From Haloferax volcanii DS2 (lineage in GTDB: Archaea; Halobacteriota; Halobacteria; Halobacteriales; Haloferacaceae), in assembly GCF_000025685.1 (NCBI RefSeq), contig NC_013967.1, forward strand, positions 330,001 through 362,000: a DNA stretch of 32,000 bases. Direction: 5' to 3'. Positions 1-31,420 of this stretch are shown here, piece after piece (position 1 is the stretch's first letter; each line of letters begins with the position of its first letter). Under the pieces are notes generated by a model. That model saw only the letters and a list, made by a program, of their open reading frames with translations. It was not told the DNA's origin and searched no databases. The translations under genes and the position numbers were made by a program.

Positions 1-2
1 AC

Positions 3-458
3 GGCAAGGAGCGCGGTACTCGTGTCGGCGGGTGCGACTGCAAGGGCTTCGAGTTCCGCGACGACGAGGACTCGCCGTGCGCCCATCTGTGCGTCCTGCG
101 GAAAGCCGAGTGGTCACACAACCACTTCGGAGACGCCGCCGGGCGCGATGTCACCGACGACCCCATCACCGCCCACGACACCGCCGAGCACGTCGCACCG
201 AACGCAACCGAACCCGAGCCCGACCTCGTCGCCGACGGTGGTGAGGATTTCCCGCGCCAGAACTGCCGTCGCTGCGGTGCCGTCTCGCCCGACGGAGAGG
301 CCCCCCCGCCCGCCGAGTGCTCCGAGGGAACGACCGACGACCCTGAGCACGAGTGGACTGACGCGCCCGACCTCGTCGCCGACGGTGGCGACATCGTCGA
401 GGCACCGACCACCGGACACGACGGGCGCGTCTTCGGCCGCCCGGAGGACCAGCTATGA
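3..458 (+). CDS. SWIM zinc-finger domain protein, C-terminal part (5' end outside window)
   Basis: Frame 3 is open from the window edge to TGA 456-458. It is absent from the ORF track because it has no in-window start. The translation GKERGTRVGGCDCKGFEFRDDEDSPCAHLCVLRKAEW shows the CxC...CxH SWIM pattern. It is acidic with GC-rich third positions, unlike the P/T/S/R-rich listed ORFs 22..543 and 32..244 in the other frames. Confidence 0.7.
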   Translation, partial: GKERGTRVGGCDCKGFEFRDDEDSPCAHLCVLRKAEWSHNHFGDAAGRDVTDDPITAHDTAEHVAPNATEPEPDLVADGGEDFPRQNCRRCGAVSPDGEAPPPAECSEGTTDDPEHEWTDAPDLVADGGDIVEAPTTGHDGRVFGRPEDQL

Positions 459-642
459 CCTGCATCACCTACTCCCGAGCACCAGCACCACGAGCCGACC
501 AGCCCCGGCGCTCGCGCGGGCGCGCACACCCCCGCGCGAATAGGCCTCCTCGTACGACCACGGGGGGGCGTACTGCCATACTCCGTATCCCCGCCCCGTC
601 TGCGTATTACGAGTGTGACACGCTGCAGTACAGAGGTGCCCT

Positions 643-1095
643 ATGAGCCGAATGAAGACCGAGCGGACCGAGAGCACGACGGTGACCGTCCGCGTCGACG
701 AGGACCTGAAGGAAGACTACACCAGCGCTCTCGACGGGTCGATAAGCGACGACATCCGGTCCCACATGGAGGAGGTCGCGCGGACCGTTCGAGATGAGTC
801 CGACAACAACCTCCCTGACGATGAGATTCTGCGAGACGGCTACCTCGCGCTCCGACGGACTGCCGAGGCGTACGACCCGAACGGTCGTCGCATCGACGTG
901 ACGACTGCTATCTCGAAGGTCGCCGAGCGAGCAGGAATCCCGAAAGACGCCGTCCGCCGTCGCGTCCTGAAGCCCCTCATCCGAGACGACTACGTCGAGT
1001 TGGACTGGGGGGAAATCATCATCTACCAGCCGGAGGAGGTCAACGCGAGCGCGAATCGGGCCTCCCCGACGAAGGGAAAGAGTACGAGTAGCTAA
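643..1095 (+). CDS. Ribbon-helix-helix domain DNA-binding protein
   Basis: 150 aa acidic ORF. The N-terminus TVTVRVDEDLKEDYTSAL...IRSHMEEV fits an RHH (CopG/Arc-like) beta-strand plus helices. The C-terminal half is helical and may be wHTH-like. Confidence 0.65.
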   Translation: MSRMKTERTESTTVTVRVDEDLKEDYTSALDGSISDDIRSHMEEVARTVRDESDNNLPDDEILRDGYLALRRTAEAYDPNGRRIDVTTAISKVAERAGIPKDAVRRRVLKPLIRDDYVELDWGEIIIYQPEEVNASANRASPTKGKSTSS

Positions 1096-1232
1096 GAAGA
1101 GTCGTCGTCGGTCTTTTTTTGCTGTCCGAACCGCCGCTGTATCTGCGCCTTCAGCACTCCCGAAATCGCCGAGAGTGGGAGCGCCGCGACCGCGAGGAGT
1201 TCCAGCGGACTGAGTGTGACACTACCGTCCAT
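1092..1232 (-). CDS. Small membrane protein (46 aa), last gene of the minus-strand chain
   Basis: Not in the track (under 60 aa). ATG at 1232-1230 overlaps the upstream stop by 11 nt (ATGGACGGTAG). Translation: MDGSVTLSPLELLAVAALPLSAISGVLKAQIQRRFGQQKKTDDDSS, with one hydrophobic helix. Its stop overlaps the convergent stop of 643..1095 by 4 nt. Confidence 0.4.
   Translation of the reverse strand: MDGSVTLSPLELLAVAALPLSAISGVLKAQIQRRFGQQKKTDDDSS
1114..1120 (+). terminator. Oligo-T run (T7) downstream of the 643..1095 stop
   Basis: tcttttttt lies 19 nt after the TAA. Archaeal terminators are commonly oligo-T tracts. The run sits inside the putative opposite-strand ORF 1092..1232 (codons caa aaa aag). 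Confidence 0.35.
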
Positions 1233-1422
1233 CGTCGTCCTCCTCGACGCCGCCGTCGGTAGCTACCGCCCAGTCCTCGACCCGCCGCACGCGCCCACGA
1301 ATGATGCGCAAGTCCTCATGGAGGTCTTGCCGGACCCAGAGAACCAGCGCGGCGACGCCGAGGAGGAGCAGCGCCGTCACCGGGTCGGTCGTCTGCAAGA
1401 TGAGGTCGGTTAGCTCACTCAT
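1222..1422 (-). CDS. Small membrane protein (66 aa)
   Basis: Internal ATG of listed ORF 1222..1503, forming an ATGAGTGA overlap with the stop of the upstream gene. MSELTDLILQTTDPVTALLLLGVAALVLWV is an N-terminal TM helix, followed by an acidic tail. Confidence 0.55.
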   Translation of the reverse strand: MSELTDLILQTTDPVTALLLLGVAALVLWVRQDLHEDLRIIRGRVRRVEDWAVATDGGVEEDDDGR

Positions 1423-1810
1423 CGCCGACCACTCCCGCGATGATTTCGAGCAGCGGACGGAGCAGATACAGGAGCACAAGCCCGACGACGACCGCGACGA
1501 CAATCCACACCTTCGCGGCGAGTCCTGTCCCGCGCGTCGGGTTCGACGCCTGCCCGTCCTGCGGGTCCTCTATCCACGGCGTCCCGCCCGGACCAGCGGT
1601 GTTCCCGGCTTCGTCATCGAACAGCGAGACGAGCCCGCCGACGCCCTCATCGAAGTTGAGCGCGGCGGCGTCCGCTGCGCCCGCGACCGTATCGTACGGG
1701 TCGCGGACGGCCTGACCGGGGTCGCTGACGAAATCGTCGATGCCGCCGAGCCAGTTGTTGGAGCCGTCCCCGAAGGTACCGGTTCCGTTCGTGTCGGGCA
1801 CGTCAGCCAC
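1415..1810 (-). CDS. Acidic tail-anchored protein (131 aa)
   Basis: GTG at 1810 gives a GTGGCTGA start/stop overlap with the upstream gene. The part of listed ORF 1415..1975 upstream of it is R-rich and overlaps the neighbouring gene. The D/G-rich body ends in the TM helix VWIVVAVVVGLVLLYLL. Confidence 0.55.
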   Translation of the reverse strand: MADVPDTNGTGTFGDGSNNWLGGIDDFVSDPGQAVRDPYDTVAGAADAAALNFDEGVGGLVSLFDDEAGNTAGPGGTPWIEDPQDGQASNPTRGTGLAAKVWIVVAVVVGLVLLYLLRPLLEIIAGVVGDE

Positions 1811-2225
1811 CTCCGAAGACGACTGCGCCGATGGCGACCGCGGCGGCCACCCCGAGCGCGATGAAGTTGCGACGTGACCCATCGCCATCGAGGAGCCATC
1901 CGACGCCCGGCGCGTTCTCGGTCGAGTCGTCGGTGTCCGCCGACGGGCTCGACGAGCCGCCCGGCGACGACCCACCGCCGACCGAGGTCTCGCCGTCGTC
2001 GCTCTCGCTCGTCGAGGCGAGCGACGAGTCGATGTCGAAGTAGGTCGACGCGAACGGGTCGCCGTCCATCAGGACCTGCTGGCGGAGGCGACCATCACCG
2101 AGGAGGTGGATGCGGTCGGCGAAGGTGTCGCCGCCGTGCTCGCGGACGGTCGCAAGCACGGCCGGGTCGGACGGGTCCCACTCCTCGGAGTTATCGACCC
2201 AGTCGAGTCCGAGCGGACCGCTCAC
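1803..2225 (-). CDS. Acidic tail-anchored protein (140 aa)
   Basis: GTG start overlaps the upstream stop (GTGA). Acidic composition with an S/G/D low-complexity linker and a C-terminal TM helix NFIALGVAAAVAIGAVVF. Confidence 0.7.
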   Translation of the reverse strand: MSGPLGLDWVDNSEEWDPSDPAVLATVREHGGDTFADRIHLLGDGRLRQQVLMDGDPFASTYFDIDSSLASTSESDDGETSVGGGSSPGGSSSPSADTDDSTENAPGVGWLLDGDGSRRNFIALGVAAAVAIGAVVFGGG

Positions 2226-2788
2226 TTGTCGTCACCTCCCGCGAGGACCGCCGCGCCGATGGCGACGACAACCGCGACGCCAGCCGCGCCAGCCGCGAGA
2301 AGCCCGCCGCTCGACGAGTCGCCGGTCGACTCGCCCATCCCGGTGAGACTTTCGCGGAGGTTGCGAAGTTGCTCCTCCAGAGCGGTGATTTCACCGACTT
2401 GCGGCGTCTCGCTCGACCCGCCGCCGACGATGTTGCGGACCTCGTCGACGACATCCTCGACGCTCTCGTAGCCGCCGCTCAGTCGGTCCTCGTCGATGCT
2501 CACCGATCCGTCGGGGTTGACCGTGACCTCGTCGCCGTCGCTGTTTTCGTTCGGATCGGGGGAGACGGCGTCGTTCGCCGGGTCACCTCCGCCCGGCATC
2601 CCGCTCTCAGAGTTGCCGGGGTCGAGGCCGTCGTCATCGCCGATGGAGCCGTACCCGCCAGTCCCGCCGTCGTCGTCGAGGTAGTCGCCGGTGTCGATGG
2701 TGTTGTCGTCATCATCGTCGGAGTTGCCCGGGATGGACTCGCTGCCTCCGGGGACTCCACCACCGGACTCGTCTGGGTCGATTATCAT
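2222..2788 (-). CDS. Hyperacidic tail-anchored protein with short coiled-coil (188 aa)
   Basis: ATG at 2788 shares one base with the upstream TGA (TGATG). D/G-rich N-terminal half, heptad-like ITALEEQLRNLRESL, and a C-terminal TM helix LLAAGAAGVAVVVAIGAAVLA. Confidence 0.75.
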   Translation of the reverse strand: MIIDPDESGGGVPGGSESIPGNSDDDDDNTIDTGDYLDDDGGTGGYGSIGDDDGLDPGNSESGMPGGGDPANDAVSPDPNENSDGDEVTVNPDGSVSIDEDRLSGGYESVEDVVDEVRNIVGGGSSETPQVGEITALEEQLRNLRESLTGMGESTGDSSSGGLLAAGAAGVAVVVAIGAAVLAGGDDK

Positions 2789-2943
2789 CAATCATCGACC
2801 TCCGTGGTTGTGAGTGTCACGTCTCCATCATCTCCAACCGTCATCTCGATGACTGTCAGATGCTCCGATTCGTCTCCAAACTCGAAGCGGTAAGTCTCTC
2901 CTTCCTCGGCACTCCGTGGTCCGGGAAAATCGGGAATCTCCAT
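2788..2943 (-). CDS. Small acidic protein (51 aa)
   Basis: Not in the track. ATG at 2943 forms a TAATG overlap with the stop of 2943..3431. Translation: MEIPDFPGPRSAEEGETYRFEFGDESEHLTVIEMTVGDDGDVTLTTTEVDD. It fills the gap between neighbours exactly. Confidence 0.5.
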   Translation of the reverse strand: MEIPDFPGPRSAEEGETYRFEFGDESEHLTVIEMTVGDDGDVTLTTTEVDD

Positions 2944-3431
2944 TAGTAGCTGACCTCCTCGAAGACGAATTTGATTTCCCGGTGTCCTGTCTGGTCCGCA
3001 GTCAGATTGTTACCGTTGTAGGTGATGCGGATGCTTTTTGACTCCGTTGCTTTGAGGTTCGTGAGCGCATTCAGCGACGCCGCAGTATCTTGCGGAGCCG
3101 CCGAGTTGACACTCCACGTCGAGTTCCGCCAGTAGACGGCATCGTCGTCCGGGCCGCCTCCGTTCATCATCCGAACGTGGCCCGCGCTCCACACGTAGAA
3201 GAAATGGTCTCCAGAGCCGTCTCCTCCGGGGTTTGGAGCTTCGAGCTCCATCCCGATGACCTTCCAGACCTTGCCCTCTGGAGCGTAGATGTTGGTCGTC
3301 TGCTTCGAACCAGCCGCGACGGTCGCGGTCTGGCCGAACGACTTGGTGACGATGGTTGGTCGGTTGTTCACGGCGAGTGTCTCGCCGCTCCCTTTTGTTC
3401 CGGACTGTCCCCACGGTGCACGACCGGGCAT
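2943..3431 (-). CDS. Beta-rich protein, structural (capsid-like) candidate (162 aa)
   Basis: Clean acidic/polar ORF with alternating-pattern strands (KVWKVIGMELEA, HFFYVWSAGHVRMM, SIRITYNGNNL, EIKFVFEEVSY) and no TM helix. Its start shares one base with the upstream stop. Confidence 0.8.
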   Translation of the reverse strand: MPGRAPWGQSGTKGSGETLAVNNRPTIVTKSFGQTATVAAGSKQTTNIYAPEGKVWKVIGMELEAPNPGGDGSGDHFFYVWSAGHVRMMNGGGPDDDAVYWRNSTWSVNSAAPQDTAASLNALTNLKATESKSIRITYNGNNLTADQTGHREIKFVFEEVSY

Positions 3432-3871
3432 CAGAACACCCCCCCGATGACGCGCCGAATCCCACCGAGGTAATCGACGGTCGGGAGCGCGCGGAAGCGG
3501 TAGGCGTAGTCGGTGCTCTTGTTGTCGGTGATGATGACGATACGGTCACCCTTGCGCATCTCCGCGTTGACGTGGTAGCGGTCGCCGTCGGGCTCACCGG
3601 TCACGAACTGCTCGCCGCCGCCGTAGCTCGGAATGTCGGTATCCTCGGCAGACTCCGGGTTGTCCGGGTCACCCCGGATGCGCCGAATCACTGGTCGCAA
3701 CTGCAGGGCGTCCTCCGACCCGGGGACCGCCCACAGCGACAGCTGCTCGACGGTGCAGTCGGCGGGCGCGACCCACGCGACCTCGTGGCCGGTAGTGTCG
3801 GCCGGGACCTCGTCTTGGATGTGCGGCGTCTCGCGGCGCTCGTCGGTCGTGAGCTTCGATAAAATTCCCAT
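3431..3871 (-). CDS. Beta-rich protein, structural candidate (146 aa)
   Basis: ORF with GC-rich third positions and strand-like segments (HEVAWVAPADCTVEQLSLWAV, DRIVIITDN, YAYRFRALPTVDY). No TM helix and no recognised catalytic motif. Confidence 0.8.
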   Translation of the reverse strand: MGILSKLTTDERRETPHIQDEVPADTTGHEVAWVAPADCTVEQLSLWAVPGSEDALQLRPVIRRIRGDPDNPESAEDTDIPSYGGGEQFVTGEPDGDRYHVNAEMRKGDRIVIITDNKSTDYAYRFRALPTVDYLGGIRRVIGGVF

Positions 3872-3881
3872 GGTGGGACCT

Positions 3882-4388
3882 CTACAGCGAACTCCGGTAC
3901 AGCATCACGTCGCTGTTAGCCGGGTCGATTTCCTTTCCGTCGCTGTTCGAGTCGGCGTCGATGCGGAACTCGATGTGCCGACCCGCCGTCGCGTACGGAG
4001 CGAGCGAGTACATCAGCGGGCGCTCGGTGGGCGACTCGCTGGCATACTCTGCGAGCAGTTCGAGGTCACCGAGCTTGCGCGTGAACATCGCACGGCCGTC
4101 GGAGTCGGTGATGGCCGCGTAGAGCGTGCCGCTGATGGTGTCGCCCTCGGTGCCCGACCCGTTGCCCGTGGCGACGATGTCCGCGTGCATGGGCGAGGAG
4201 TCCGCGCTTTCGCGGTCCTTCCCGCCCGCTCCGAACCAGAGGTCCTTGTCCTGCGGGACCTTCTCGCGGTAGACCGTGACCTCCGCGCCGGCCTTGACCG
4301 TGTCCTGGTCGAGGTCGCTGCCGCGGATGGGTCGCACGTCGCCGTCGAGTTCGGCGAGGTCTTCGTTGTAGCTGAGTGTTCCCGGCAT
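3882..4388 (-). CDS. Beta-rich protein, structural candidate (168 aa)
   Basis: ORF with strand-like segments (AEVTVYREKV, TISGTLYAAITD, RHIEFRIDAD, DVMLYRSSL) and no TM helix. It starts 4 nt after the upstream stop. Confidence 0.8.
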   Translation of the reverse strand: MPGTLSYNEDLAELDGDVRPIRGSDLDQDTVKAGAEVTVYREKVPQDKDLWFGAGGKDRESADSSPMHADIVATGNGSGTEGDTISGTLYAAITDSDGRAMFTRKLGDLELLAEYASESPTERPLMYSLAPYATAGRHIEFRIDADSNSDGKEIDPANSDVMLYRSSL

Positions 4389-4391
4389 CGG

Positions 4392-4589
4392 TTAGACCCC
4401 CGGAATGTTCACGTCATCATCGGTGACGCCGGCCTTCTGCCGTGCGGTGTTGTACAGATACGCTCCTGCTCCGACGACGGCCATCGTGAGGGTGACGCCG
4501 ATAACCCCGAGACCGAGGTTCTGTGCGGATTCACCGGGGTCGTCAGTATCGACCTCGATGCCGAGTAGTTCAAGTGGTACTTTCGTCAT
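4392..4589 (-). CDS. Small membrane protein (65 aa), first gene of the minus-strand chain
   Basis: Single TM helix LGLGVIGVTLTMAVVGAGAYLY. A TATA-like CTTTTTCA (plus-strand 4614-4621) lies about 25-32 nt upstream of the ATG, as expected for a leaderless haloarchaeal mRNA. Confidence 0.7.
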   Translation of the reverse strand: MTKVPLELLGIEVDTDDPGESAQNLGLGVIGVTLTMAVVGAGAYLYNTARQKAGVTDDDVNIPGV

Positions 4590-4640
4590 TCCATTTCCGA
4601 CAACGAGCGATTGTGAAAAAGTTCGAAGTGTAGTGGAATA

Positions 4641-4665
4641 CGCTCAACAATTCAATTATTGAGCG
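4641..4665. promoter_or_regulatory. Palindromic operator candidate between divergent promoters
   Basis: cgctcaa-caattcaatta-ttgagcg has 7-bp perfect arms and contains the inner palindrome tcaat-t-attga (4652-4662). It sits between TATA-like elements at 4614-4621 (minus operon) and 4679-4687 (plus operon). The same 11-mer recurs at 9798-9808. Confidence 0.55.
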
Positions 4666-4718
4666 TCGTACAGCACTCGTTATTTTACATTCACGGTCGA
4701 CTGACTGTTCGACACAGT

Positions 4719-4901
4719 ATGATTGGCTACCCGACACTAGTTCTCGGCACGCTCGTGGCCTATCTCCGGGCTTCGGACGAGACGAGACCATTCGTGAAAG
4801 GAGCGTTCGGAATCGGCATCCTCGGCGAGTGTGGCGCACTCAGCGGTGCAGTACACTTCACTCAGTCGGGCGTCTCGATGCTCGGAGGGCTCATCGCATG
4901 A
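4719..4901 (+). CDS. Small membrane protein (60 aa)
   Basis: Internal ATG of listed ORF 4659..4901. Two hydrophobic segments (YPTLVLGTLVAYL, AFGIGILGECGALSGAV). Its stop overlaps the next start (ATGA). Confidence 0.5.
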   Translation: MIGYPTLVLGTLVAYLRASDETRPFVKGAFGIGILGECGALSGAVHFTQSGVSMLGGLIA

Positions 4902-5359
4902 ACGGCAGTAAAGAGCCTCAGAACCCCACGGACCAGCAATGCGAGCATTGCGGGCTGTTCTACGCGGCGCAGGGAATCCACAACCACCGGCCGGGGTGCC
5001 CGCTTCGAGACTGGGACACGATGATTCAGCCCCTCGACGGCGCTGGTGAGCCAGCCGGCGAGCGCGGTTCAGTCCCCGATAGTGACCCGGCGAACCCGCC
5101 CGAATCGGGGGACATCGAAGTGTCGGACACTCAGAAGGCGATGACCGACGGCGGAAACCCCATCCACGGCGCGCCTGAGCCCGTCACGGACGGCGGCAAG
5201 GACACTGAGGAGGTCGACGGGTGTCCCGACTGCGGGTCGGACGACTACGTCGACGCCGACGCTGTTCTGCGCGCTCGCAACCCGTCCGCGAAGAACACGG
5301 CGGTCCTGACCCAGTACGACCGCGTCTGCATCGAGTGCGGGGAGGCGTACGATGCCTGA
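4898..5359 (+). CDS. Zinc-ribbon protein (153 aa)
   Basis: Start MNGSKEPQ at ATG 4898. Has CEHCG...H...C near the N-terminus and CPDCG...CIECG at the C-terminus, with an acidic linker between them. Confidence 0.75.
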   Translation: MNGSKEPQNPTDQQCEHCGLFYAAQGIHNHRPGCPLRDWDTMIQPLDGAGEPAGERGSVPDSDPANPPESGDIEVSDTQKAMTDGGNPIHGAPEPVTDGGKDTEEVDGCPDCGSDDYVDADAVLRARNPSAKNTAVLTQYDRVCIECGEAYDA

Positions 5360-5792
5360 GGACGGCGAGACACCGTCCCCACCGTCGCCGGGCGACACGT
5401 TCGTCCGTGACGCCGGCGTCCCGAACATGGGCGCTACGGCGAACCACGCGGCTGCTGAGGGTGCGCCCGCGGAGGAGTCGGTGGGGTCGTCGTCGACGCT
5501 CCGCGACATGGTGCTCTCGACAGAACCGAAGCGGTCGCTCGACGAAATCGAATCGCCGTGGGCTCCGGAGCGCGGCGGCCCGAAGCGGGTCTTCCGCGGG
5601 TTCCAGAAGATGGGCGACATCGACGGGATGCCCGCCGGCTTCGACGTAGTCGTCGGGCTCGCCGAGACGGCCGTCCTGATTCTCGACCACGTCGAGGAGC
5701 AGAACGACGGCGACCAGAGCGACGACGCGGGTCAGAACGACGAGGACCTCGACGACGACCTCGCGCCGCTCGCGGGTGTCGGAGGTGCGTGA
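5352..5792 (+). CDS. Acidic hypothetical protein (146 aa)
   Basis: Its start overlaps the upstream stop (ATGCCTGA). One hydrophobic stretch (FDVVVGLAETAVLILD) and a D/E/Q-rich tail. Confidence 0.7.
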   Translation: MPEDGETPSPPSPGDTFVRDAGVPNMGATANHAAAEGAPAEESVGSSSTLRDMVLSTEPKRSLDEIESPWAPERGGPKRVFRGFQKMGDIDGMPAGFDVVVGLAETAVLILDHVEEQNDGDQSDDAGQNDEDLDDDLAPLAGVGGA

Positions 5793-5794
5793 CG

Positions 5795-6769: not shown

Positions 6770-6912
6770 CTGCCCCCGTCGTTCCGGCTGACATCGCGTT
6801 TCTCGCGGTCTCAGTCGCGACGACCTTCTCGTTCGTGGCCGGGTTCCTCGGTGGACTGAACGCAGGGATGTCGCTCTACCGACCGATGGTCGACACAGTT
6901 CTCGACCTATGA
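6766..6912 (+). CDS. Small membrane protein (48 aa)
   Basis: Not in the track. GTGA start/stop overlap. Translation: VTAPVVPADIAFLAVSVATTFSFVAGFLGGLNAGMSLYRPMVDTVLDL, which is hydrophobic. Confidence 0.45.
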   Translation: MTAPVVPADIAFLAVSVATTFSFVAGFLGGLNAGMSLYRPMVDTVLDL

Positions 6913-7088
6913 CTTGCACACGACCGCGGCCGACGTGCTACGAGTGCGGGCGTCGTCAATGTGTCCGCTGTGGGCGTTGTTACGAGAACCACATTCAGTT
7001 CGAGCACTACTCCGTTACTCACTCGAAGCGGTGTCCGTCGTACTTGTGCCGTCTTATCAAGCGACTCCGGCCCGCCACGTACTATTGA
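6909..7088 (+). CDS. Cys-rich zinc-finger mini-protein (59 aa)
   Basis: Not in the track. ATGA overlap with the upstream stop. Translation: MTCTRPRPTCYECGRRQCVRCGRCYENHIQFEHYSVTHSKRCPSYLCRLIKRLRPATYY, with CxxC-x4-CxxC plus further C/H residues. The listed ORFs 6914..7192 and 6961..7158 are in other frames. Confidence 0.5.
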   Translation: MTCTRPRPTCYECGRRQCVRCGRCYENHIQFEHYSVTHSKRCPSYLCRLIKRLRPATYY

Positions 7089-7198
7089 CTCTCCGAAAAC
7101 ACCTGAGAGTCGGAAAGAATCGACTCGATTTCAGTCTTCGACACGGGGAAAAGACTAGGATACTGGCGCTATTCTTCCGAGATGTGAGGTAACCGGAA

Positions 7199-7783
7199 AT
7201 GAAGATGCAGGACTACGAGAGCAAGGACGGGAAGAAGGTGTGGCTCAGTCGGAGCGAGGTTGATACACTCCTCGACGTCGCCGACGGGACTGAGCAGCGA
7301 GTCGCGTTCGCCCTCGGTGCGCGATGTGGGCTCCGTGTCGCGGAGGTCGTGGAAGTCACGCCCGACGACGTAGTCGACACGGAGGTCGGGAAGTTCCTCC
7401 GGGTGTGGGAGGGGAAGGGTTCGAAGTACCGAGAGACGCCCATCCCGACTGACCTCGCGGCGACGATCGCGGCGGTCGGCGACTATCGCGACGAGTCGAG
7501 CGATACACCCGTCGTCGACCGGACGACTCGAACCGTACGGAACTGGGTCACCAAGGCTGGCGACCAGCTGGTCGAGGAGACCGAGGACGTTGGCTGGTCG
7601 TTCCTCGGCCCGCACGACCTCCGACGGACGTGGGGGACGCTACTGGTCGGTGCGGAGGTCGAGCCCGGACTGGTGATGGAGTGGGGCGGTTGGGAGGACT
7701 GGGAGACGTTCAGAGAACACTACCTCGGTGCATACAGTCTCGAAGCACAGGCGCGTGGGATGGGCAAAATCGAGTGGTTGTGA
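7199..7783 (+). CDS. Short tyrosine recombinase / integrase (catalytic domain only, 194 aa)
   Basis: The catalytic signature is readable: GLRVAEV (Arg), GKGSKYRETPIP (Lys hairpin), HDLRRTW (H-x-x-R), GGWEDWETF (Trp) and REHYLG (Tyr). Confidence 0.85.
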   Translation: MKMQDYESKDGKKVWLSRSEVDTLLDVADGTEQRVAFALGARCGLRVAEVVEVTPDDVVDTEVGKFLRVWEGKGSKYRETPIPTDLAATIAAVGDYRDESSDTPVVDRTTRTVRNWVTKAGDQLVEETEDVGWSFLGPHDLRRTWGTLLVGAEVEPGLVMEWGGWEDWETFREHYLGAYSLEAQARGMGKIEWL

Positions 7784-7798
7784 GATAGCGCCGTACGG

Positions 7799-8116
7799 CT
7801 ATGCGTCAGCCACCTGCTGCTGTATCTTTACTACTATAAATCTCAATGCTCCGAACGTAACTAATAGCGATACTACGATCACGGAATCACTACTTCCTGG
7901 TATTGCTGACCTCCAGAATCCTGCCACCGTGAATACACAAAGGATGGCGGATTTGAGAATTATATTTAGATCATCTGCGATTATCTGAACAGTCTCGGAT
8001 TGGGACTTAAAGAACATATAGCCGAGTATGATGAGAGTGACACCAGCAATAGCTGCGACCCCCGTATTATCTGTACTTGCTATCGCTGATATTGCTTCGG
8101 CAAAATCAATCTGCAT
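7799..8116 (-). CDS. Membrane protein (105 aa), AT-rich island
   Basis: About three hydrophobic helices (GVAAIAGVTLIILGYMFF, ILCVFTVAGFW, VIVVSLLVTFGALRFIVV). Its start overlaps the upstream stop by 11 nt (ATGCAGATTGA). Confidence 0.65.
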   Translation of the reverse strand: MQIDFAEAISAIASTDNTGVAAIAGVTLIILGYMFFKSQSETVQIIADDLNIILKSAILCVFTVAGFWRSAIPGSSDSVIVVSLLVTFGALRFIVVKIQQQVADA

Positions 8117-8621
8117 AGTGTAGTGCCGTCACTATCAGAATAGCCGCCCCAGCTAAAGCGATAAGAATACTCTGGAGATAGAATGCGAGCATGAACGTCA
8201 CTATACCCAGAGCGTACAGAGTCGCTACTGGGTGGTCCAGTAACGCGATATCTAGCACTCTAGAGAGTGACGATTGAGCAGTCATGTCTACCTCCTCTGT
8301 GTCTGTAACAAGGTCGTGTGGCTGTATATTCTCTCCGATTACCCCAAGTTGTTGCTCACTAAATGATTTAGCGACCTCTGAGTAGAAGTCTGGATTCTGC
8401 ACTTTAGACAAACCAGAGTCCAAAGGATTTACTGCATGAAACAGAACTTCTTCCTTAGCGAGCCTTTCTGAGATCTCTGCGGCAGACATCTCGATTATTT
8501 GCTGCTTGGCTTCTGGAGGGAGATCCTCCCACTCCAACTCGTCTTGTTGGACGCGGAAATTTCCGGATGGTGTATTTCCGAGGCCGCCCTCATCGACCTG
8601 TGGTCCTCCGTTATGAGTCAT
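8106..8621 (-). CDS. Protein with soluble acidic N-domain and two C-terminal TM helices (171 aa), AT-rich island
   Basis: Start chosen at MTHNGGPQ (ATG 8621), which overlaps the upstream stop by 11 nt (ATGACTCATAA). The C-terminus is VATLYALGIVTFMLAFYLQSILIALAGAAILIVTAL. Confidence 0.6.
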   Translation of the reverse strand: MTHNGGPQVDEGGLGNTPSGNFRVQQDELEWEDLPPEAKQQIIEMSAAEISERLAKEEVLFHAVNPLDSGLSKVQNPDFYSEVAKSFSEQQLGVIGENIQPHDLVTDTEEVDMTAQSSLSRVLDIALLDHPVATLYALGIVTFMLAFYLQSILIALAGAAILIVTALHYAD

Positions 8622-9210
8622 CCTTGTGCCCTTCTGACGAAAGTTGGTATAGTTGACGGAGCGATTCATTTTCGTTCACTCTCAGAACTTGGCTGTGTTT
8701 TGCATTCTCTGAGCCGTCGTCGTCCCGGAAACGGAGTCGGTCAACATCATCTGTCGATGGTTGAATCTCTATCTGCATGATTCCATCAACACTCGGGGAA
8801 GGCAAATCGAATTGATATGTGTGACTCTCTCCAGGGACGATCTCTAGTGGTTCGTATTCCGCTGTACTGCTTAACCTCGCGCCGCCAGCAATGTGTTGTG
8901 TCTGTTCTACTCTGTTGAATCCCACCTCAATCGGGTGGTCCCCAGTATACTCAAAAAGGATCTCATAATACCATGGCAAGCCTTCGATTATGTCGCTTCC
9001 AGAAGCTAAATTGACAAAATCAGAAACCGGCTTGAATTTCTCCCAAGTGAGGTCGGTCCCTTTGAGATCTTCCTCAGATATCTCTCGCGCATCTTTCTCT
9101 GCGAAACTTGATGGGACTGTCCCGTATTCAATTCCAAACTCTCCCGGGATGTCTGCCGCATCTCTTATTCGAGGCCCAGCCCGCTTGCCTGTGATCTCTA
9201 AGTATTCCAT
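8611..9210 (-). CDS. Hypothetical soluble protein (199 aa), AT-rich island
   Basis: Unambiguous ORF in low-GC DNA. The C-terminal half has beta-sandwich-like alternation (PIEVGFNRVEQ, EPLEIVPGESHTYQFDL, GIMQIEIQP). No motif recognised. Confidence 0.7.
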   Translation of the reverse strand: MEYLEITGKRAGPRIRDAADIPGEFGIEYGTVPSSFAEKDAREISEEDLKGTDLTWEKFKPVSDFVNLASGSDIIEGLPWYYEILFEYTGDHPIEVGFNRVEQTQHIAGGARLSSTAEYEPLEIVPGESHTYQFDLPSPSVDGIMQIEIQPSTDDVDRLRFRDDDGSENAKHSQVLRVNENESLRQLYQLSSEGHKDDS

Positions 9211-9219
9211 CGTTCTAGT

Positions 9220-9306
9220 TTAGCTGTCGCCAATCTCACGCTTCTGCCGGTCAACTTCCTTTCTGACTGTCGCCTCAATAAGGTCTAGCCGTTCATTCGC
9301 TACCAT
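9220..9306 (-). CDS. Possible 28-aa helical peptide
   Basis: Not in the track. ATG 9306-9304 overlaps the stop of 9300..9581. Translation: MVANERLDLIEATVRKEVDRQKREIGDS. It ends 9 nt before the next gene and fills an otherwise unexplained gap. Confidence 0.3.
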   Translation of the reverse strand: MVANERLDLIEATVRKEVDRQKREIGDS

Positions 9307-9581
9307 GGAGGCGCAGGTCGATTCGCTTCTTCGATCACTTCCATCTGTTCAACGAACCCACTACTCCGCCAGTCTGACCTCGGTTCAGAGTATTTCCCGA
9401 TTTTGTAAATCGGACCAGACTCCTCAACAGAAAACGCCACATCGTCTATTTCCCACCGCGTCCCGTTTCTGTCTTCCAGAGTATCTCCAACCCAGAATTT
9501 GCATGACCGAGATAGCTCCTTCTTCAGGCGGTTTGAGTGCTCCCAGTTAAATTGTCTCACGTATCCTACACCTACGTTCAA
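9300..9581 (-). CDS. Hypothetical protein (93 aa), downstream partner of the RHH gene
   Basis: 4-nt start/stop overlap with the RHH gene. Rich in W/K/R/E; translation begins MNVGVGYVRQFNWEHSNRLKKELSRSCKFWVGDTLEDRNGTRWEIDD. No known toxin motif recognised. Confidence 0.65.
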   Translation of the reverse strand: MNVGVGYVRQFNWEHSNRLKKELSRSCKFWVGDTLEDRNGTRWEIDDVAFSVEESGPIYKIGKYSEPRSDWRSSGFVEQMEVIEEANRPAPPW

Positions 9582-9793
9582 TCCTCGTCTTCTTCGCTGG
9601 CAAGCAGAGACGGGTCCTCAATCGCCATCTTCATCAAACGGCGAATTGCCTCGCTTCGAGACATATCCATGGGTAGCTCCCCGTTTAACTGACCTCTCTT
9701 TATCGCGCGGTCGAAGTCTTCGACGAAGTCGTCGCCCACTTTGAGAGAAATGTTCCGGGAACCGCTTCCGTCCGTATCGTAGGCGGTGCTCAT
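9578..9793 (-). CDS. Ribbon-helix-helix (CopG-like) protein (71 aa)
   Basis: RNISLKVGDDFVEDFDRAI...SRSEAIRRLMKMAI fits the strand-helix-helix pattern. First gene of the AT-rich operon. Palindromic sites lie directly upstream. Confidence 0.75.
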   Translation of the reverse strand: MSTAYDTDGSGSRNISLKVGDDFVEDFDRAIKRGQLNGELPMDMSRSEAIRRLMKMAIEDPSLLASEEDED

Positions 9794-9795
9794 AC

Positions 9796-9822
9796 AATCA
9801 ATTATTGATTCAATGATTGAAT
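9796..9822. promoter_or_regulatory. Two adjacent palindromic operator candidates (TCAAT-N-ATTGA x2)
   Basis: aatcaat-t-attgatt (9796-9810) is a perfect 15-bp palindrome. attcaa-tga-ttgaat (9808-9822) has 6-bp perfect arms around a 3-nt spacer and overlaps the first by 3 nt. They start 3 nt upstream of the RHH ATG (9793), over the expected TATA position. The core is identical to 4652-4662. Confidence 0.6.
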
Positions 9823-9875
9823 ACCTTGGGAAGATACTACCTCGTTGATGTGGTCGCTTAGGGAGTAAGTAATAA

Positions 9876-9887
9876 GTAACTCGTTAC
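9876..9887. promoter_or_regulatory. Short palindrome gtaac-tc-gttac next to TATA-like gtaataag upstream of 9904
   Basis: The TATA-like element at 9869-9876 lies about 30 nt upstream of ATG 9904. The palindrome lies between the TATA element and the start. Confidence 0.3.
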
Positions 9888-9903
9888 AATACTACCAAGC
9901 GCA

Positions 9904-10089
9904 ATGGAAGTCTCAGTAAACGTGAGCATCTCCATGCCGCCGGAGATGCTAGAGAAAATCGACGAAAACGCCCGAGCTCACGGGAAATCGCGTGCGGCGT
10001 ACGTCCGTCACCTCATCCAGCAGGCACCGGACTCACCGTTCGAGACGCCCGAACTCCAACTGACCGACGAACCGCCCGCAGAAGCATGA
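9904..10089 (+). CDS. CopG/RHH family transcriptional regulator (61 aa)
   Basis: VSISMPPEMLEKIDENARAHGKSRAAYVRHLI is a typical RHH signature. The gene is divergent from the other RHH gene. Confidence 0.8.
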   Translation: MEVSVNVSISMPPEMLEKIDENARAHGKSRAAYVRHLIQQAPDSPFETPELQLTDEPPAEA

Positions 10090-10198
10090 ACAGGGGACCG
10101 TCCAAAGCGCCTGCCAGCAACCCGGAGGTCCCCGATTCGGAGCAGTCGCGCGCGGCACGTAAGTCCAGCGTTGCGTACTGCGTCGAGGTGTTCTGACC

Positions 10199-10432
10199 GT
10201 GAGTGACGATTCGTTCGACGTGAAGCTCGTCGTCACCCGCGGCACCGGGTCGCAGGACAAGGAGAAGATGCAGGTCGAGGTCTCGGCCGACTCGCTCGAA
10301 GAACTCGACGAGAAGGTGAACGGTGCCCGCGAGCGACTGCGCGAGTGGGCTGACGACATCCGCACCATCCAGCCGGACGGTCGCCGTCGACACGACGACG
10401 CCCAGACGGAACTCGGAGGTGCCAGCGCGTGA
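10199..10432 (+). CDS. Hypothetical acidic protein (77 aa)
   Basis: Clean acidic ORF; translation begins MSDDSFDVKLVVTRGTGSQDKEKMQVEVSADSLEELDEKV. Its stop overlaps the next start. Confidence 0.7.
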   Translation: MSDDSFDVKLVVTRGTGSQDKEKMQVEVSADSLEELDEKVNGARERLREWADDIRTIQPDGRRRHDDAQTELGGASA

Positions 10433-10620
10433 GCGCCCAGACGAACCTCGGGACGTTTACCGCCGGACTCTCGCCCGCGGAGACCGACGCCTATCTCGCC
10501 GTCGACGAGGGCGACGAGACGCCGACCGAGTTCGCACGCCGGACCGGACGTGACCCGTCGACTGTGCGGACGCTCCTGTACCGCGCTCGGCGCAAGCTCG
10601 ACAAGCGGGGTGGAGCGTGA
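10429..10620 (+). CDS. Small HTH protein (sigma-70 region-4-like helix-turn-helix, 63 aa)
   Basis: TPTEFARRTGRDPSTVRTLLYRARRKL resembles the region-4/LuxR-type HTH pattern (xxEiAxxxGxSxxTVxxxLxRARxKL). Confidence 0.65.
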   Translation: MSAQTNLGTFTAGLSPAETDAYLAVDEGDETPTEFARRTGRDPSTVRTLLYRARRKLDKRGGA

Positions 10621-10787
10621 CCGACCTCGAAATCATCGCTCAAATCGGTGAAGCGTGGGATTCAGAAACCGCCAGAGAGGTCAACAACAACCTCGACGAC
10701 GACGACCTCGGCATCATCCACGACATCAGCCGTAGCGGCGCGCACTACCTCGTTCGGTGGCCTGACGAAACGGAGGGAGACGAGTGA
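10617..10787 (+). CDS. Small acidic protein (56 aa)
   Basis: Not in the track. GTGA overlaps at both ends. Translation: MTDLEIIAQIGEAWDSETAREVNNNLDDDDLGIIHDISRSGAHYLVRWPDETEGDE. The listed R-rich ORF 10648..11928 is an off-frame artefact. Confidence 0.5.
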   Translation: MTDLEIIAQIGEAWDSETAREVNNNLDDDDLGIIHDISRSGAHYLVRWPDETEGDE

Positions 10788-11785
10788 CCGACCTCGAACC
10801 GCTCTCCCCCGAGGAGGGCGTCACGCGCTTCCTGCGTCACCGCGAACCGAGCGTCCGCGACTCGACCCTGCAGAACTCGCGCACTCGGCTGAACCACTTC
10901 CTCGACTGGTGCGAGGAGGTCGGCATCGAGAACCTGAACGACCTGTCCGGCCGCGACCTCGCCGACTTCGTCGCGTGGCGCCGAGGCGACATCGCGCCCA
11001 TCACGCTCCAGAAGCAACTGAGCACCGTGCGGGCGGCGCTCGGTTTCTGGGCCGACATCGAGGGCGTCGAGGACGGCCTTCGCGAGCGCGTTCACGCGCC
11101 GGAGCTTCCCGACGGTGCCGAGGCGCGCGACGTCCACCTGTCGGCGGACCGCGCCGAATCGATTCTCGACTACCTCGACCGCTACCAGTACGCCAGCCGC
11201 GAGCACGTCATCATGGCGTTGCTCTGGCGAACCGGAATGCGTCGGGGTGCGCTTCGGGCGCTCGATGTCGGCGACCTGCACGCCGACGACCACGCCGTCG
11301 AGTTGGTCCATCGGCCGGAGACCGATACCGCTCTGAAGAACGGCACGAAGGGCGAGCGGTGGGTCTACCTCGGTCCCGAGTGGTTCGAGGTCGTCGACGA
11401 GTACGCCGCGACGAACCGGCACGATGTCGTCGACGACCACGGCCGCCGCCCGCTGATAACGTCGAAGTACGGCCGTCCGACCGGCGATACCATCTACAAG
11501 TGGGTCGGGAAGCTGACGCGCCCCTGCGAGTACGGCGACTGTCCGCACGACCGCGAGCGAGCGACGTGCGACGCGGTCGGGTCAGACGGCTATCCGAGTC
11601 GGTGCCCGTCGTCGCGGTCGCCCCACGCCGTTCGTCGAGGACACATCACGGCCTACCTGAACCGCGAGGTCTCGCCGGAGACGATTTCGGAGCGGTCGGA
11701 CGTGTCGCTCGACATCCTGTACCAGCACTACGACGCGCGGACCCCGCGCGAGAAGATGAACGTTCGAATCCAGAACCTGCCATGA
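10784..11785 (+). CDS. Tyrosine recombinase / phage-type integrase (333 aa)
   Basis: N-terminal SAM-like core-binding region (VRDSTLQNSRTRLNHFLDWCE). Catalytic motifs: TGMRRGA (Arg), HAVRRGH (H-x-x-R) and ILYQHYD (Tyr). A Cys/His-rich insert CEYGDCPHDRERATCDAVGSDGYPSRCP precedes the HxxR. Confidence 0.9.
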   Translation: MTDLEPLSPEEGVTRFLRHREPSVRDSTLQNSRTRLNHFLDWCEEVGIENLNDLSGRDLADFVAWRRGDIAPITLQKQLSTVRAALGFWADIEGVEDGLRERVHAPELPDGAEARDVHLSADRAESILDYLDRYQYASREHVIMALLWRTGMRRGALRALDVGDLHADDHAVELVHRPETDTALKNGTKGERWVYLGPEWFEVVDEYAATNRHDVVDDHGRRPLITSKYGRPTGDTIYKWVGKLTRPCEYGDCPHDRERATCDAVGSDGYPSRCPSSRSPHAVRRGHITAYLNREVSPETISERSDVSLDILYQHYDARTPREKMNVRIQNLP

Positions 11786-11832
11786 GTCACAACACTACCT
11801 GCCAGCCGCACAGCCCCGTGCGATTCCCGACC

Positions 11833-11925
11833 GGGACCTTCCCCGCGAGTCCACTACCATTTTCGCGACGCAACTCAGCGAGTCGTGACTCCGCGAGGAG
11901 TCCGACGAGTACCTCCTGCGTCGCG
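11833..11925. repeat. Direct repeat copy 1 (about 90 bp)
   Basis: gggaccttccccgcgagtccactaccattttcgcgacgcaac...gagtcgtgactcc...ctgcgtcgcg is repeated at 12154-12243, by eye about 80-85 percent identical. It contains a 9-bp inverted repeat cgcgacgca/tgcgtcgcg enclosing smaller hairpins. Confidence 0.75.
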
Positions 11926-11944
11926 TGATGTAGTGCCTGTTTGA

Positions 11945-12022
11945 GCGGGGATTTGAATCAGGGAACGAGAGGTGAGCGAGCAGCGCGAGCGAACGGGAGT
12001 GACCGTGGTTCAATATCCCCGC
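11945..12022. repeat. Imperfect inverted repeat (about 15-bp arms) with T-loop-like sequence
   Basis: gcggggatttgaatc (11945-11959) pairs with ggttcaatatccccgc (12007-12022). The arms resemble a tRNA T-loop/3' end (TTCAAATCCCCGC), but no cloverleaf can be folded. Confidence 0.55.
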
Positions 12023-12121
12023 GAGTCCATTTCCTTCCGTCACTTCGTTCCGTCAGTCACTGGACTCGCTTGCCCCCACTCGCTTCGTCTGCGAGCGACC
12101 CGTGAGTCGCCCGCATGGCCA

Positions 12122-12144
12122 GCGAGACGACACGGTCGTCTCGC
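12122..12144. other. Perfect 10-bp stem hairpin gcgagacgac-acg-gtcgtctcgc
   Basis: Read directly from the sequence. It lies 10 nt upstream of repeat copy 2. Confidence 0.6.
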
Positions 12145-12153
12145 ACTGCTCGT

Positions 12154-12243
12154 GGGGACCCCGCAAGTCCACTACCATTTTCGCGACGCAACACGACGAG
12201 TCGTGACTCCGTCAGGAGCCCTGCGAGTATCAACTGCGTCGCG
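12154..12243. repeat. Direct repeat copy 2 (about 90 bp)
   Basis: ggggaccccgcaagtccactaccattttcgcgacgcaac...gagtcgtgactcc...ctgcgtcgcg. See copy 1. The outer 9-bp inverted repeat is conserved. Confidence 0.75.
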
Positions 12244-12264
12244 AACAGATGTACGTCCCGTTTC

Positions 12265-12510
12265 TCATTGCCGTCCAATGCCGAGTTGATATGCCGCGAA
12301 GTACGAACTGAACATCGATATGGCAAGTAGAGTGCAGTACGTGCTTATAAAATAGAGAAGTTCAACGATTGAATTCGGTGAGCTGATACCAAGAAATCGA
12401 GATACGACCGCAGCGAATCCAATCGAAGGAAACGAAACAATCACCAGTACAGATCTACTGGACCATGCGCTGGACCGCCCCAGCATGAAGTCTTTTGGAG
12501 GGACGTCCAT
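12265..12510 (-). CDS. Small membrane protein (81 aa) in AT-rich DNA
   Basis: Hydrophobic segments VLVIVSFPSIGFAAVV and LLYFISTYCTLLAISMFSSYFAAY. The palindromic TATA-like attttaaaat (12534-12543) is centred about 28 nt upstream of the ATG. Confidence 0.5.
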   Translation of the reverse strand: MDVPPKDFMLGRSSAWSSRSVLVIVSFPSIGFAAVVSRFLGISSPNSIVELLYFISTYCTLLAISMFSSYFAAYQLGIGRQ

Positions 12511-12533
12511 AGTCTCATCGTACGCAGAGAATT

Positions 12534-12543
12534 ATTTTAAAAT
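12534..12543 (-). promoter_or_regulatory. TATA-box-like palindrome attttaaaat
   Basis: Its position relative to ATG 12510 fits a leaderless haloarchaeal promoter. Confidence 0.45.
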
Positions 12544-12849
12544 TGTCATTTCTGCACAGTACCTCACAGCCTAGGCTACCGCTGTTTTTGTGACGCTTCC
12601 CACCGTGGTGAATACTGAGTCGTCGCGCTCTACGACTACACAATCGCGACCCGAACGAAGTACCACTCCCCGTCGTACCGGACGAGCTCGGGCCGGTCAG
12701 CGTTGCTGAACGAAAACCGGCTTTGTTCGTCGTCCGAGCGTGACTCGGCCGTCGAGCGCGCTCGGAAACATCGTTCACTTCCGCCGAACCCGACACTTTC
12801 ACCCCGCTCATGGCGGACCCTCTTACCGTCTCGCTCCGAGGGCGTCGGT

Positions 12850-13224: not shown

Positions 13225-13272
13225 GCCGGCAGTCGCGAGTCGGCAATCCGCTGTCACGTCCGACCGTGACCG

Positions 13273-16082: not shown

Positions 16083-16124
16083 GCCGACCGCCGCGGTCTC
16101 AGGATCGGCGTGCGCTCCGCCCGG

Positions 16125-29242: not shown

Positions 29243-31420
<2,178 letters not shown>

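Follow-up and report, generated by a model that had tools for sequence, protein, structure and literature searches.

Halfvol2, an integrative element of Haloferax volcanii that combines a pleolipovirus-type integration module with an SH1-like morphogenesis layout

Background

This report deals with the provirus Halfvol2 (synonym Hvol-IV1) of Haloferax volcanii DS2. We are confident that it makes up the left ~12 kb of the stretch of DNA that was analysed, which comprises 32,000 nucleotides (nt) of contig NC_013967.1 (positions 330,001 to 362,000 of the forward strand) and is called the window below, its first letter being position 1. The closest described systems are the Halopanivirales and the Pleolipoviridae. 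The former (SH1, PH1, HHIV-2, SNJ1 and P23-77, in the families Sphaerolipoviridae, Simuloviridae and Matsushitaviridae) are tailless icosahedral viruses that contain a membrane, and they have genomes of 16-31 kb, compared with 12.3 kb in Halfvol2. In SH1 (AY950802, 8400-13102), the open reading frames (ORFs) 22 to 17 form a minus-strand operon with the packaging ATPase, ORF17, as its last gene, and this operon diverges from the genes for VP12 (a small membrane protein), VP7 and VP4. The Pleolipoviridae are characterized by a family-wide swapping of replication modules, the protein-primed family-B polymerase (pPolB) of the His2 type included. Two pleolipovirus proviruses, Halfvol1 and Halfvol3, reside in the same host as Halfvol2. 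In 2025, 'Halicoviridae' were proposed as a Singelaviria family of small tailless icosahedral haloarchaeal viruses, whose major capsid proteins (MCPs) resemble simulovirus MCPs only in profile-profile comparison (bioRxiv 10.1101/2025.02.15.638363). The preprint does not mention Halfvol2. Compared by description only, the genome size of its virus DHIV-1 (13.6 kb) and the remoteness of its MCPs would fit a Halfvol2-like virus.

Halfvol2 itself is already known: earlier work on the main haloarchaeal model organism gave it a name, mapped and deleted it, and demonstrated its excision. In 2015 it was described as a ~12-kb integrative provirus (Hvol-IV1/HFIV1) that is targeted by spacers from three Haloferax species, with CRISPR spacer targets reported in HVO_0372 and HVO_0375 (PMC4390866). 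In 2021 it was recovered from a virus stock as a circular contig of 12,275 bp with 165x coverage; it was named a 'novel virus group', many of its predicted proteins were pointed out to be membrane proteins, and the virus was considered to be probably lipid-enveloped (PMC7911831). In 2025 the provirus was deleted, and its excision was shown by attP/attB PCR and quantitative PCR, especially at 30 °C. Circular Halfvol2 DNA was present in culture supernatants and in the bands of caesium chloride (CsCl) gradients. A search with BLASTP and Foldseek (E < 1e-3) yielded no Halfvol2 capsid protein, and Foldseek paired HVO_0377 with the packaging ATPases gp13 of PH1 and B204 of STIV2 (PMC12091111). The accessible literature on Halfvol2 makes no mention of the pPolB-bearing relatives or of the SH1-like synteny that are described here. 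A first-pass annotation, made from the letters of the window alone, had suggested that the element might belong to an undescribed lineage. The three publications correct this point, and most of what it recommended by way of checks (definition of the att sites, outward-facing PCR, electron microscopy and proteomics) is contained in published work.

Results and discussion

Identity and boundaries of the element

The window is 100% identical to two public Hfx. volcanii contigs (L017 and L009). A single offset, in which the window coordinate equals the genome coordinate (CP001956) minus 330000, fits both published ends of Halfvol2, 329565-341853. The element measured in this way has 12,275 bp and a GC content of 0.6222 (62.2%), uses tRNA-Ala(CGC) as its target, is bounded by a 14-nt att repeat and encodes two proteins with a Phage_integrase domain. 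Since the published values are the same (12,275 bp, 62.2% GC, tRNA-Ala-CGC, 14-nt repeat, two integrases, CP001956 nt 329565-341853; PMC7911831, PMC12091111), the region was identified as Halfvol2, a temperate virus-like element. Exact-sequence look-ups retrieved HVO_0370 (162 amino acids (aa)), HVO_0371 (146 aa) and HVO_0372 (168 aa), and the 204-aa ATPase falls into the cluster of HVO_0377. The published target of spacer C-14 (nt 333928-333984, in HVO_0372) maps inside the 168-aa ORF.

The tRNA-Ala(CGC) gene was read on the identical contig L017, where it occupies window positions -493 to -422. Its last 14 nt, TCCCCGCGAGTCCA, are attL (-435 to -422, also read on L017); this site lies outside the window, which is without the first 435 nt of Halfvol2. 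A 14-nt copy of the tRNA 3' end at 11840-11853 (plus strand) is attR and forms the right end of the element, and the spacing of the two repeats is 12,275 nt. The corresponding sites in other Haloferax genomes were compared by exact look-up of a conserved downstream PUA protein (15603-16082). Four site states were found among these genomes: empty, occupied by the element of the window, occupied by variants of it, and occupied by an unrelated integrase-bearing element. An empty site consists of rpS10, tRNA-Ala, ~1 kb of sequence and then a 124-aa gene. The sequence beyond 11853 is the one that follows the tRNA in insert-free genomes, with a junction that is exact at the 14-nt repeat, which places attR at 11840-11853. 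This alignment to insert-free relatives, which had been recommended by the first-pass annotation, thus defines attL, attR and the length of 12,275 bp, and it shifts both ends of the span of 1-12630 that had been assumed there: the left end lies 435 nt outside the window, and the ~780 nt from 11854 to 12630 are host DNA that is present in insert-free genomes as well. The claim that the element is integrated and mobile is borne out by the empty, occupied and differently occupied sites and by the published excision. Halfvol2 is an integrated, mobile, virus-like element.

Gene layout and the packaging-type ATPase

The region has 58-70% GC, and its raw ORF lists are crowded with shadow ORFs. The gene map was drawn from third-position GC (GC3) and cross-checked with the gene calls of the identical public contigs. 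It contains ~30 genes in window 1-11,800. Both the map and the contigs agree with the division into four modules that had been made before, and they contain the two divergent, tightly coupled operons of small genes that had been noticed. The minus-strand operon (1092-4589) has 10 genes and the divergent plus-strand operon (4719-7088) has 7, followed by a further gene at 7199-7783. Start and stop codons in both operons overlap or are 1-10 nt apart, as in translational coupling. The order on the minus strand is a 65-aa transmembrane protein, the 168-, 146- and 162-aa proteins, a 51-aa protein, then proteins of 188, 140 and 128 aa that are very acidic and C-terminally anchored, and lastly two tiny transmembrane proteins. 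A hydropathy scan predicted ~10 membrane proteins in Halfvol2; together with Pfam, it confirmed the tail-anchored acidic, tiny membrane and zinc-ribbon proteins listed in the first-pass annotation. Pfam and PHROGs likewise agree with it that there is no terminase, portal, tape measure, large spike or Rep gene.

The first three genes of the plus-strand operon (4719-5792, plus strand) encode proteins of 60, 153 and 146 aa. The 153-aa one has a CPxCG zinc finger (HVO_0375 in PMC4390866), the 146-aa one is acidic, and both show 41-53% identity across genera. These genes are followed by HVO_0377 (5795-6409, plus strand), a 204-aa P-loop ATPase of the FtsK/HerA superfamily (A32-like) with a putative role in genome packaging, as had been proposed for it. 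It matches Pfam AAA_22 (4e-8) and phrog_2666 (2e-11), the latter being a 'terminase' match confined to the P-loop part of a profile with 555 positions. A total of 82 homologues were found. A profile built from 26 homologues matched the HerA hexameric translocases (1e-6) and B204 of Sulfolobus turreted icosahedral virus (STIV; 2.5e-3) in the PDB, and hhalign aligned HVO_0377 with the SH1 packaging ATPase ORF17 with a probability of 93.8% (E 1.7e-7). For the ATPase, PADLOC returned no more than generic HerA/mad8 P-loop matches. Judged by these profile comparisons, HVO_0377 is assigned to the FtsK/HerA A32-like class and not to the class of the pleolipovirus VP8.

The arrangement of these genes is that of SH1. 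The genes for the 60-, 153- and 146-aa proteins and the ATPase diverge from those for the 65-aa transmembrane protein and the 168- and 146-aa proteins, as the operon ending in ORF17 diverges from VP12-VP7-VP4, and the 65-aa protein stands in place of VP12. This protein, which has a single transmembrane segment at residues 25-43, is encoded by the first gene of the structural-type operon (4392-4589, minus strand); all relatives have a small transmembrane gene just ahead of their HVO_0372 homologue. In the first-pass annotation, sphaerolipovirus ATPases had been described as co-oriented with the capsid genes, and the opposite orientation in the window had been taken as a difference. For SH1 this is wrong. 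Since the two operons are divergent there, the argument fails and the layout counts as a similarity.

Candidate capsid proteins

Halfvol2 encodes three soluble beta-rich proteins of 162, 146 and 168 aa. The 168-aa protein HVO_0372 (3882-4388, minus strand; exact match) is the product of the most conserved gene of the structural-type operon and is kept in all distant relatives; its family has 46 representative clusters among 1.84 billion proteins. Its AlphaFold2 model is a beta-sandwich with a predicted local distance difference test score (pLDDT) of 74 and a predicted TM-score (pTM) of 0.73. The top Foldseek matches of the model were VP2 of infectious bursal disease virus (IBDV; 5e-3) and VP16, the small MCP of P23-77 (1.3e-2 to 3.6e-2, TM-score 0.46-0.52). 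HVO_0371, the 146-aa protein (3431-3871, minus strand), is a candidate second capsid protein. It was likewise modelled as a beta-sandwich, with eight strands, a pLDDT of 75.7 and a pTM of 0.70, and both models have a confident core. Its top Foldseek matches (E 3e-3 to 2e-2) were the nucleoplasmin core, the GOLD domain, IBDV VP2 and the coat proteins of picornaviruses, satellite tobacco mosaic virus and potato leafroll virus. HVO_0372 is the best candidate for the major capsid protein. The structural signal of the two proteins is weak and below threshold, and it points to jelly-roll folds, with viral capsid proteins among them. The earlier description of capsid-like beta-rich proteins can thus be kept for the three beta-rich proteins and the two beta-sandwich models, and the capsid part of it stays below threshold. 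Other searches returned less: the HVO_0372 model gave generic beta-sandwich matches and no haloarchaeal MCP in BFVD, the family profiles of HVO_0372 and HVO_0371 had no match among the PDB sequences, and when the whole set of Halfvol2 proteins was compared with the SH1 core proteins by BLASTP, only noise resulted.

The third protein, HVO_0370 (162 aa; 2943-3431, minus strand; exact match), has 28-33% identity in sister elements that are otherwise 93-100% identical, where it is substituted by versions of 165 and 176 aa. Due to this hypervariability between near-identical elements, we consider HVO_0370 to be a candidate host-recognition or vertex protein.

Halfvol2 thus resembles the Halopanivirales in its FtsK/HerA A32-like packaging ATPase, which is similar to SH1 ORF17 at the profile level, in two adjacent putative beta-barrel proteins (~150-230 aa) encoded after a small membrane protein, in its many small membrane proteins and in having P23-77 VP16 among the top structural neighbours of HVO_0372. 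It differs from them in being without the large spike-complex proteins (VP2/VP3/VP6-like) and in integrating into the chromosome by means of a tyrosine integrase. Moreover, no virion has been observed. With the ATPase and the layout in agreement and the capsid proteins dissimilar in sequence, membership of the order is unproven.

Relatives in other genera and in metagenomes

Relatives were found by tblastn and profile searches in Haloplanus and in hypersaline metagenomes. The core that is kept across genera consists of HVO_0372, the CPxCG protein, the 146-aa acidic protein, the ATPase, both recombinases and a SWIM-like protein. Related elements occur in genera and on contigs without pleolipovirus genes nearby. 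Two metagenomic contigs, L022 (SRR28149497_373297, 11,530 nt) and L026 (SRR27869039_530697, 11,270 nt), carry a Halfvol2-type core in divergent operons, with an HVO_0372-like protein (E 1e-9 and 8e-8, respectively) and an ATPase (E 1e-88 and 1e-90). In place of an integrase gene they have one for a 663-aa pPolB (Pfam 3.7e-7) with 46.5% identity to that of His1 and 41% to those of His2 and Hardyhisp2. The pPolB is common to these relatives, to His1 (Halspiviridae) and to His2 (a gammapleolipovirus), and the morphogenesis modules are unrelated; Halfvol2 itself differs from His1 and His2 in that it has no polymerase and is circular and integrative.

Both contigs terminate in exact inverted matches of 30 nt, a length that we take to be k-1 of the k=31 assembler used for the Logan assemblies. 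This means that the unique part of each contig is flanked by inverted repeats of 30 nt or more, that the terminal repeats are probably longer than the matches, and that the contig ends do not give the true termini. Such ends are as expected for a linear genome with inverted terminal repeats. The swapping of replication and integration modules around a common core, with pPolB among the modules, is typical of virus morphogenesis modules.

Neither megablast nor tblastn with the element, the ATPase and HVO_0372 gave a match in a phage collection or in 72,556 plasmid records, and scans of viral contigs with the ATPase or HVO_0370 as single proteins confirmed nothing. This agrees with the first-pass annotation, in which the element could not be assigned to an established haloarchaeal virus or plasmid family: its morphogenesis genes have no DNA or protein match in these collections. 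Two other assignments were tried and rejected, one to the Caudoviricetes (no terminase, portal, HK97-fold capsid or tail genes by Pfam and PHROGs) and one to plasmids (no match among the plasmid records and no Rep or Orc domain by Pfam).

Recombinases and a probable exchangeable segment

A XerC/D-like integrase of 333 aa (10784-11785, plus strand) with SAM-like and catalytic Pfam domains adjoins attP and is of the SNJ2/pleolipovirus type. It shares 65.6% identity with the integrase of Harhisp1, a betapleolipovirus provirus whose target is likewise tRNA-Ala, and 40-45% with those of HHPV4, SNJ2, HRPV9, Halfgib1 and LSV-48N. The order integrase, attP, CxxC zinc protein is found here as well, the zinc protein being a 34-aa ORF that matches zinc-ribbon Pfam families. 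Halfvol2 thus resembles the Pleolipoviridae in its integrase (40-66% identity), in this gene order, in its tRNA integration and in its genome size. A pleolipovirus assignment was nevertheless rejected: the element lacks a VP4-like spike, a VP3-like membrane protein and a VP8-like NTPase, the largest protein of the structural-type operon has 188 aa, and tblastn of the ATPase and HVO_0372 against the phage collection, pleolipoviruses included, found no match. PMC12091111 agrees that Halfvol2 is without the pleolipovirus gene cluster. Due to the integrase identity and the gene order shared with Harhisp1, we read the genome of Halfvol2 as a mosaic, in which an integration module of the pleolipovirus type is joined to an unrelated module for morphogenesis.

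A second tyrosine recombinase of 194 aa (7199-7783, plus strand; Pfam Phage_integrase 3.9e-16) had been overlooked in the first-pass annotation. It consists of the catalytic domain only and is 48-69% identical across genera. In sister elements at the same att site, a serine-resolvase cassette replaces this recombinase together with the AT-rich block that follows it (L004:12091-12744, L018:17948-18610). This swap argues for a resolvase-type accessory function and not for an integrase, and the 194-aa protein is likely a resolvase or accessory recombinase. The swap also suggests that the resolution and cargo segment is an exchangeable module.

The AT-rich block (7799-9793, minus strand) encodes a 105-aa protein with three transmembrane segments, a 171-aa protein with two C-terminal ones, a soluble 199-aa protein, a doubtful 93-aa ORF and a 71-aa protein that resembles ribbon-helix-helix (RHH) regulators. 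The GC content of its genes is 0.43-0.54, as against 0.58-0.71 in most other genes of the element (0.53 at 2788-2943), and the AT-rich cargo operon recognized in the first-pass annotation is thus real. No Pfam family was found for its proteins, and PADLOC detected no defence family among the products of the cargo and accessory genes. The cargo proteins of Haloferax sp. AS1 (L014) are only 36-55% identical, compared with 99-100% for the flanking genes. The 93-aa ORF (9300-9581, minus strand) is missing from a collection of 15 billion proteins.

Proposed particle and alternative explanations

We propose that Halfvol2 forms a small membrane-containing, tailless icosahedral particle of the Halopanivirales/Singelaviria kind, and we put the probability of this reading, with the steps that follow, at roughly one half. 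The capsid would consist of HVO_0372 and HVO_0371, the two proteins modelled as jelly-roll-like beta-sandwiches, whose genes come after that of a small membrane protein. Its vertices or the membrane would be decorated with the variable HVO_0370 and the acidic tail-anchored proteins, and the DNA would be pumped in by HVO_0377, an FtsK/HerA-type ATPase in a divergent operon as in SH1. Multimers may be resolved by the 194-aa recombinase, the AT-rich cassette may be exchangeable cargo that is expressed from the lysogen, and replication would be carried out by host functions or by an unrecognised protein.

A number of observations weigh against this proposal. The alignments behind the AlphaFold2 models of HVO_0371 and HVO_0372 are shallow (11-12 sequences). 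No structural match of either model reaches E 1e-3 in searches of the PDB and, for HVO_0372, of BFVD, in agreement with the published Foldseek result, the TM-scores to capsid proteins are only 0.4-0.5, and the best neighbours of HVO_0371 include non-viral jelly rolls. Neither protein has sequence or profile similarity to SH1 VP7 or VP4, and hhalign gave no sign of paralogy between the two families. In addition, no particle has been attributed to Halfvol2, and re-infection was unsuccessful (PMC12091111). The only Halfvol2 proteins found by mass spectrometry in the CsCl gradient bands were HVO_0379A and HVO_0379B (PMC12091111). Very probably these correspond to two ORFs of the AT-rich block (7799-9210, minus strand), those of 171 and 199 aa, because the two carry consecutive late-added DS2 accessions (AOP12808, AOP12809) and are located just after the 194-aa recombinase. 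If this mapping is right, the detected proteins are cargo products and not the proposed capsid proteins, which would fit a low particle yield as well as a release without a capsid.

The failure of the capsid matches to reach the threshold is also what one would see with a capsid-less, lipid-enveloped pleomorphic particle of the pleolipovirus kind, in which membrane and anchored proteins would sit in a host-derived vesicle with a circular genome and the beta-sandwich proteins would serve as spikes or as a matrix, not as a shell. The ~10 predicted membrane proteins, the pleolipovirus-type arrangement of integrase, attP and CxxC protein and the lipid-enveloped virus suggested in PMC7911831 agree with such a particle. 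However, its hallmark proteins (VP4-like spike, VP3-like matrix protein, VP8-like NTPase) are absent, neither the ATPase nor HVO_0372 has a match in the phage collection with its pleolipoviruses, HVO_0377 represents a type of packaging ATPase (FtsK/HerA) known from capsid-forming internal-membrane viruses, and the gene layout parallels that of SH1, all of which make this explanation rather doubtful. We also consider it unlikely that Halfvol2 is a non-autonomous element, either an integrative plasmid or similar to a satellite, which is released in vesicles or in Halfvol1 or Halfvol3 particles and uses its ATPase for DNA transfer or partition. It is true that neither a Rep nor a proven capsid protein was found, that three circular proviral DNAs co-banded in the gradients of PMC12091111, with only the presumed cargo proteins of Halfvol2 detected, that infection could not be shown, and that H. 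volcanii makes DNA-containing vesicles (PMC12091111). Yet three Haloferax species have spacers against HVO_0372 and HVO_0375, the DNA was obtained at 165x from a virus stock, and the same core occurs in self-contained metagenomic genomes of 11-13 kb with their own pPolB and inverted termini. Its relatives are found in genera and on contigs without adjacent pleolipovirus genes, and the 72,556 plasmid records hold no match. Finally, the stable presence of the region in many H. volcanii assemblies, and nothing else, would agree with a vertically inherited, immobile chromosomal region that merely looks foreign. The clean empty sites with their junction at the 14-nt repeat, the variants and the different element found at this site in other genomes and the published excision speak against this idea; it is refuted by the empty-site comparison, and we give it practically no credence.

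Beyond the icosahedral particle proposed for Halfvol2, we tentatively suggest, with somewhat more doubt than confidence, that Halfvol2-like elements might form a family-level lineage of internal-membrane viruses of 11-13 kb resembling the Singelaviria/Halopanivirales. Single jelly-roll capsid proteins of the HVO_0372/HVO_0371 type and the ATPase HVO_0377 would be its portable core for morphogenesis, which would have been joined to at least two types of genome, circular integrative ones with a pleolipovirus-type integrase, as in Halfvol2, and linear ones with a His1-type pPolB, as in L022 and L026. If the SH1-like layout, the ATPase and the jelly-roll pair do mark a very small icosahedral virus with an internal membrane, then a new family resembling the Singelaviria has a genetically tractable resident in H. 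volcanii. The relatives with a pPolB would in that case add a third morphotype to the network of viruses that share the His1/His2 polymerase, which bears on module recombination among archaeal viruses.

Other genes of the element

At the left end, the window starts within a 200-aa ORF, whose 3' part occupies 1-458 (plus strand) and which begins 144 nt left of the window. It contains acidic repeats and the motif C-x-C-x12-C-x-H, so that the SWIM-finger ORF of the first-pass annotation can be retained as a SWIM-like motif in an ORF truncated by the window; the full translation from L017 has no Pfam match. Its identity is 30-32% in the distant relatives L002 and L005. In the circular form, this ORF is located downstream of attP and of the 34-aa zinc-ribbon ORF. 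It is followed by a 150-aa acidic protein (643-1095, plus strand), which was found only in the Haloferax versions of the element. A protein is thus present where an RHH regulator had been annotated, and the evidence for this function is limited to weak Pfam hints (RelB 0.046, AsnC helix-turn-helix (HTH) 0.078), which make it a possible RHH or HTH regulator.

The distal half of the structural-type operon (1092-2943, minus strand) encodes transmembrane proteins of 46 and 66 aa, the acidic anchored proteins of 128, 140 and 188 aa, which have a pI of ~4.1 and whose anchors were located in the hydropathy scan, and the 51-aa protein. These genes are poorly kept outside Haloferax, and no Pfam or PHROG family was found for their products. 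The two operons are separated by a divergent promoter gap of 129 nt (4590-4718) with the palindrome ACGCTCAA-N11-TTGAGCGT at 4640-4666, which may be an operator.

The small accessory ORFs after the ATPase (6406-7088, plus strand) encode a protein of 74 aa, one of 53 aa with a transmembrane segment and an uncertain Cys-rich one of 59 aa. The last of these (6909-7088, plus strand), which is basic, is doubtful, as it is uncalled on the identical public contigs. Most relatives (L001, L002, L004, L005) have a PDDEXK_16 nuclease-like gene directly after the ATPase, to which the 74-aa ORF of Halfvol2 has no detectable similarity.

Between the cargo block and the integrase lies a set of regulator genes (9904-10787, plus strand) for a 61-aa RHH protein, a 77-aa DUF7389 protein, a 63-aa Sigma70_r4_2-like HTH protein and a 56-aa protein; the first three have Pfam scores of 3.5e-7, 2.9e-11 and 1.9e-7, respectively. 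A regulator and integrase module ending in a repeat-rich tract had been described before. The module is found at 9904-11785; the tract, at 11854-12243, is host DNA.

Insertion hot spot and flanking chromosome

The host-side tract at 11854-12243 contains relic att sequences and is present in insert-free genomes too. Further copies of the tRNA-Ala 3' end were found at 12015-12030 and 12158-12176, and the att flank is duplicated (11841-11925 and 12159-12243, 85 nt with 86% identity). Relic copies of the tRNA 3' end also occur in the empty-site genomes L007, L008 and L011. These repeats are scars of earlier, repeated insertions at this tRNA hot spot. A different element occupies the same Haloferax site in GCA_045033415.1 (L010:1-6200); it encodes two integrases of ~335-340 aa and a DUF6338 protein, and ARAGORN detected no intact tRNA-Ala in this stretch.

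A tRNA scan of the 32-kb window and an Rfam search of its whole length returned no tRNA and no family, respectively. The remainder of the window (12850-32000) is ordinary chromosome with genes for an RNB protein (RNase R-like), the PUA protein, a DUF1028 protein, SepF, UvrA, a BNR-repeat protein, an FAD-binding protein and a glycine-cleavage T protein, and the order of these genes is the same in all Haloferax genomes compared.

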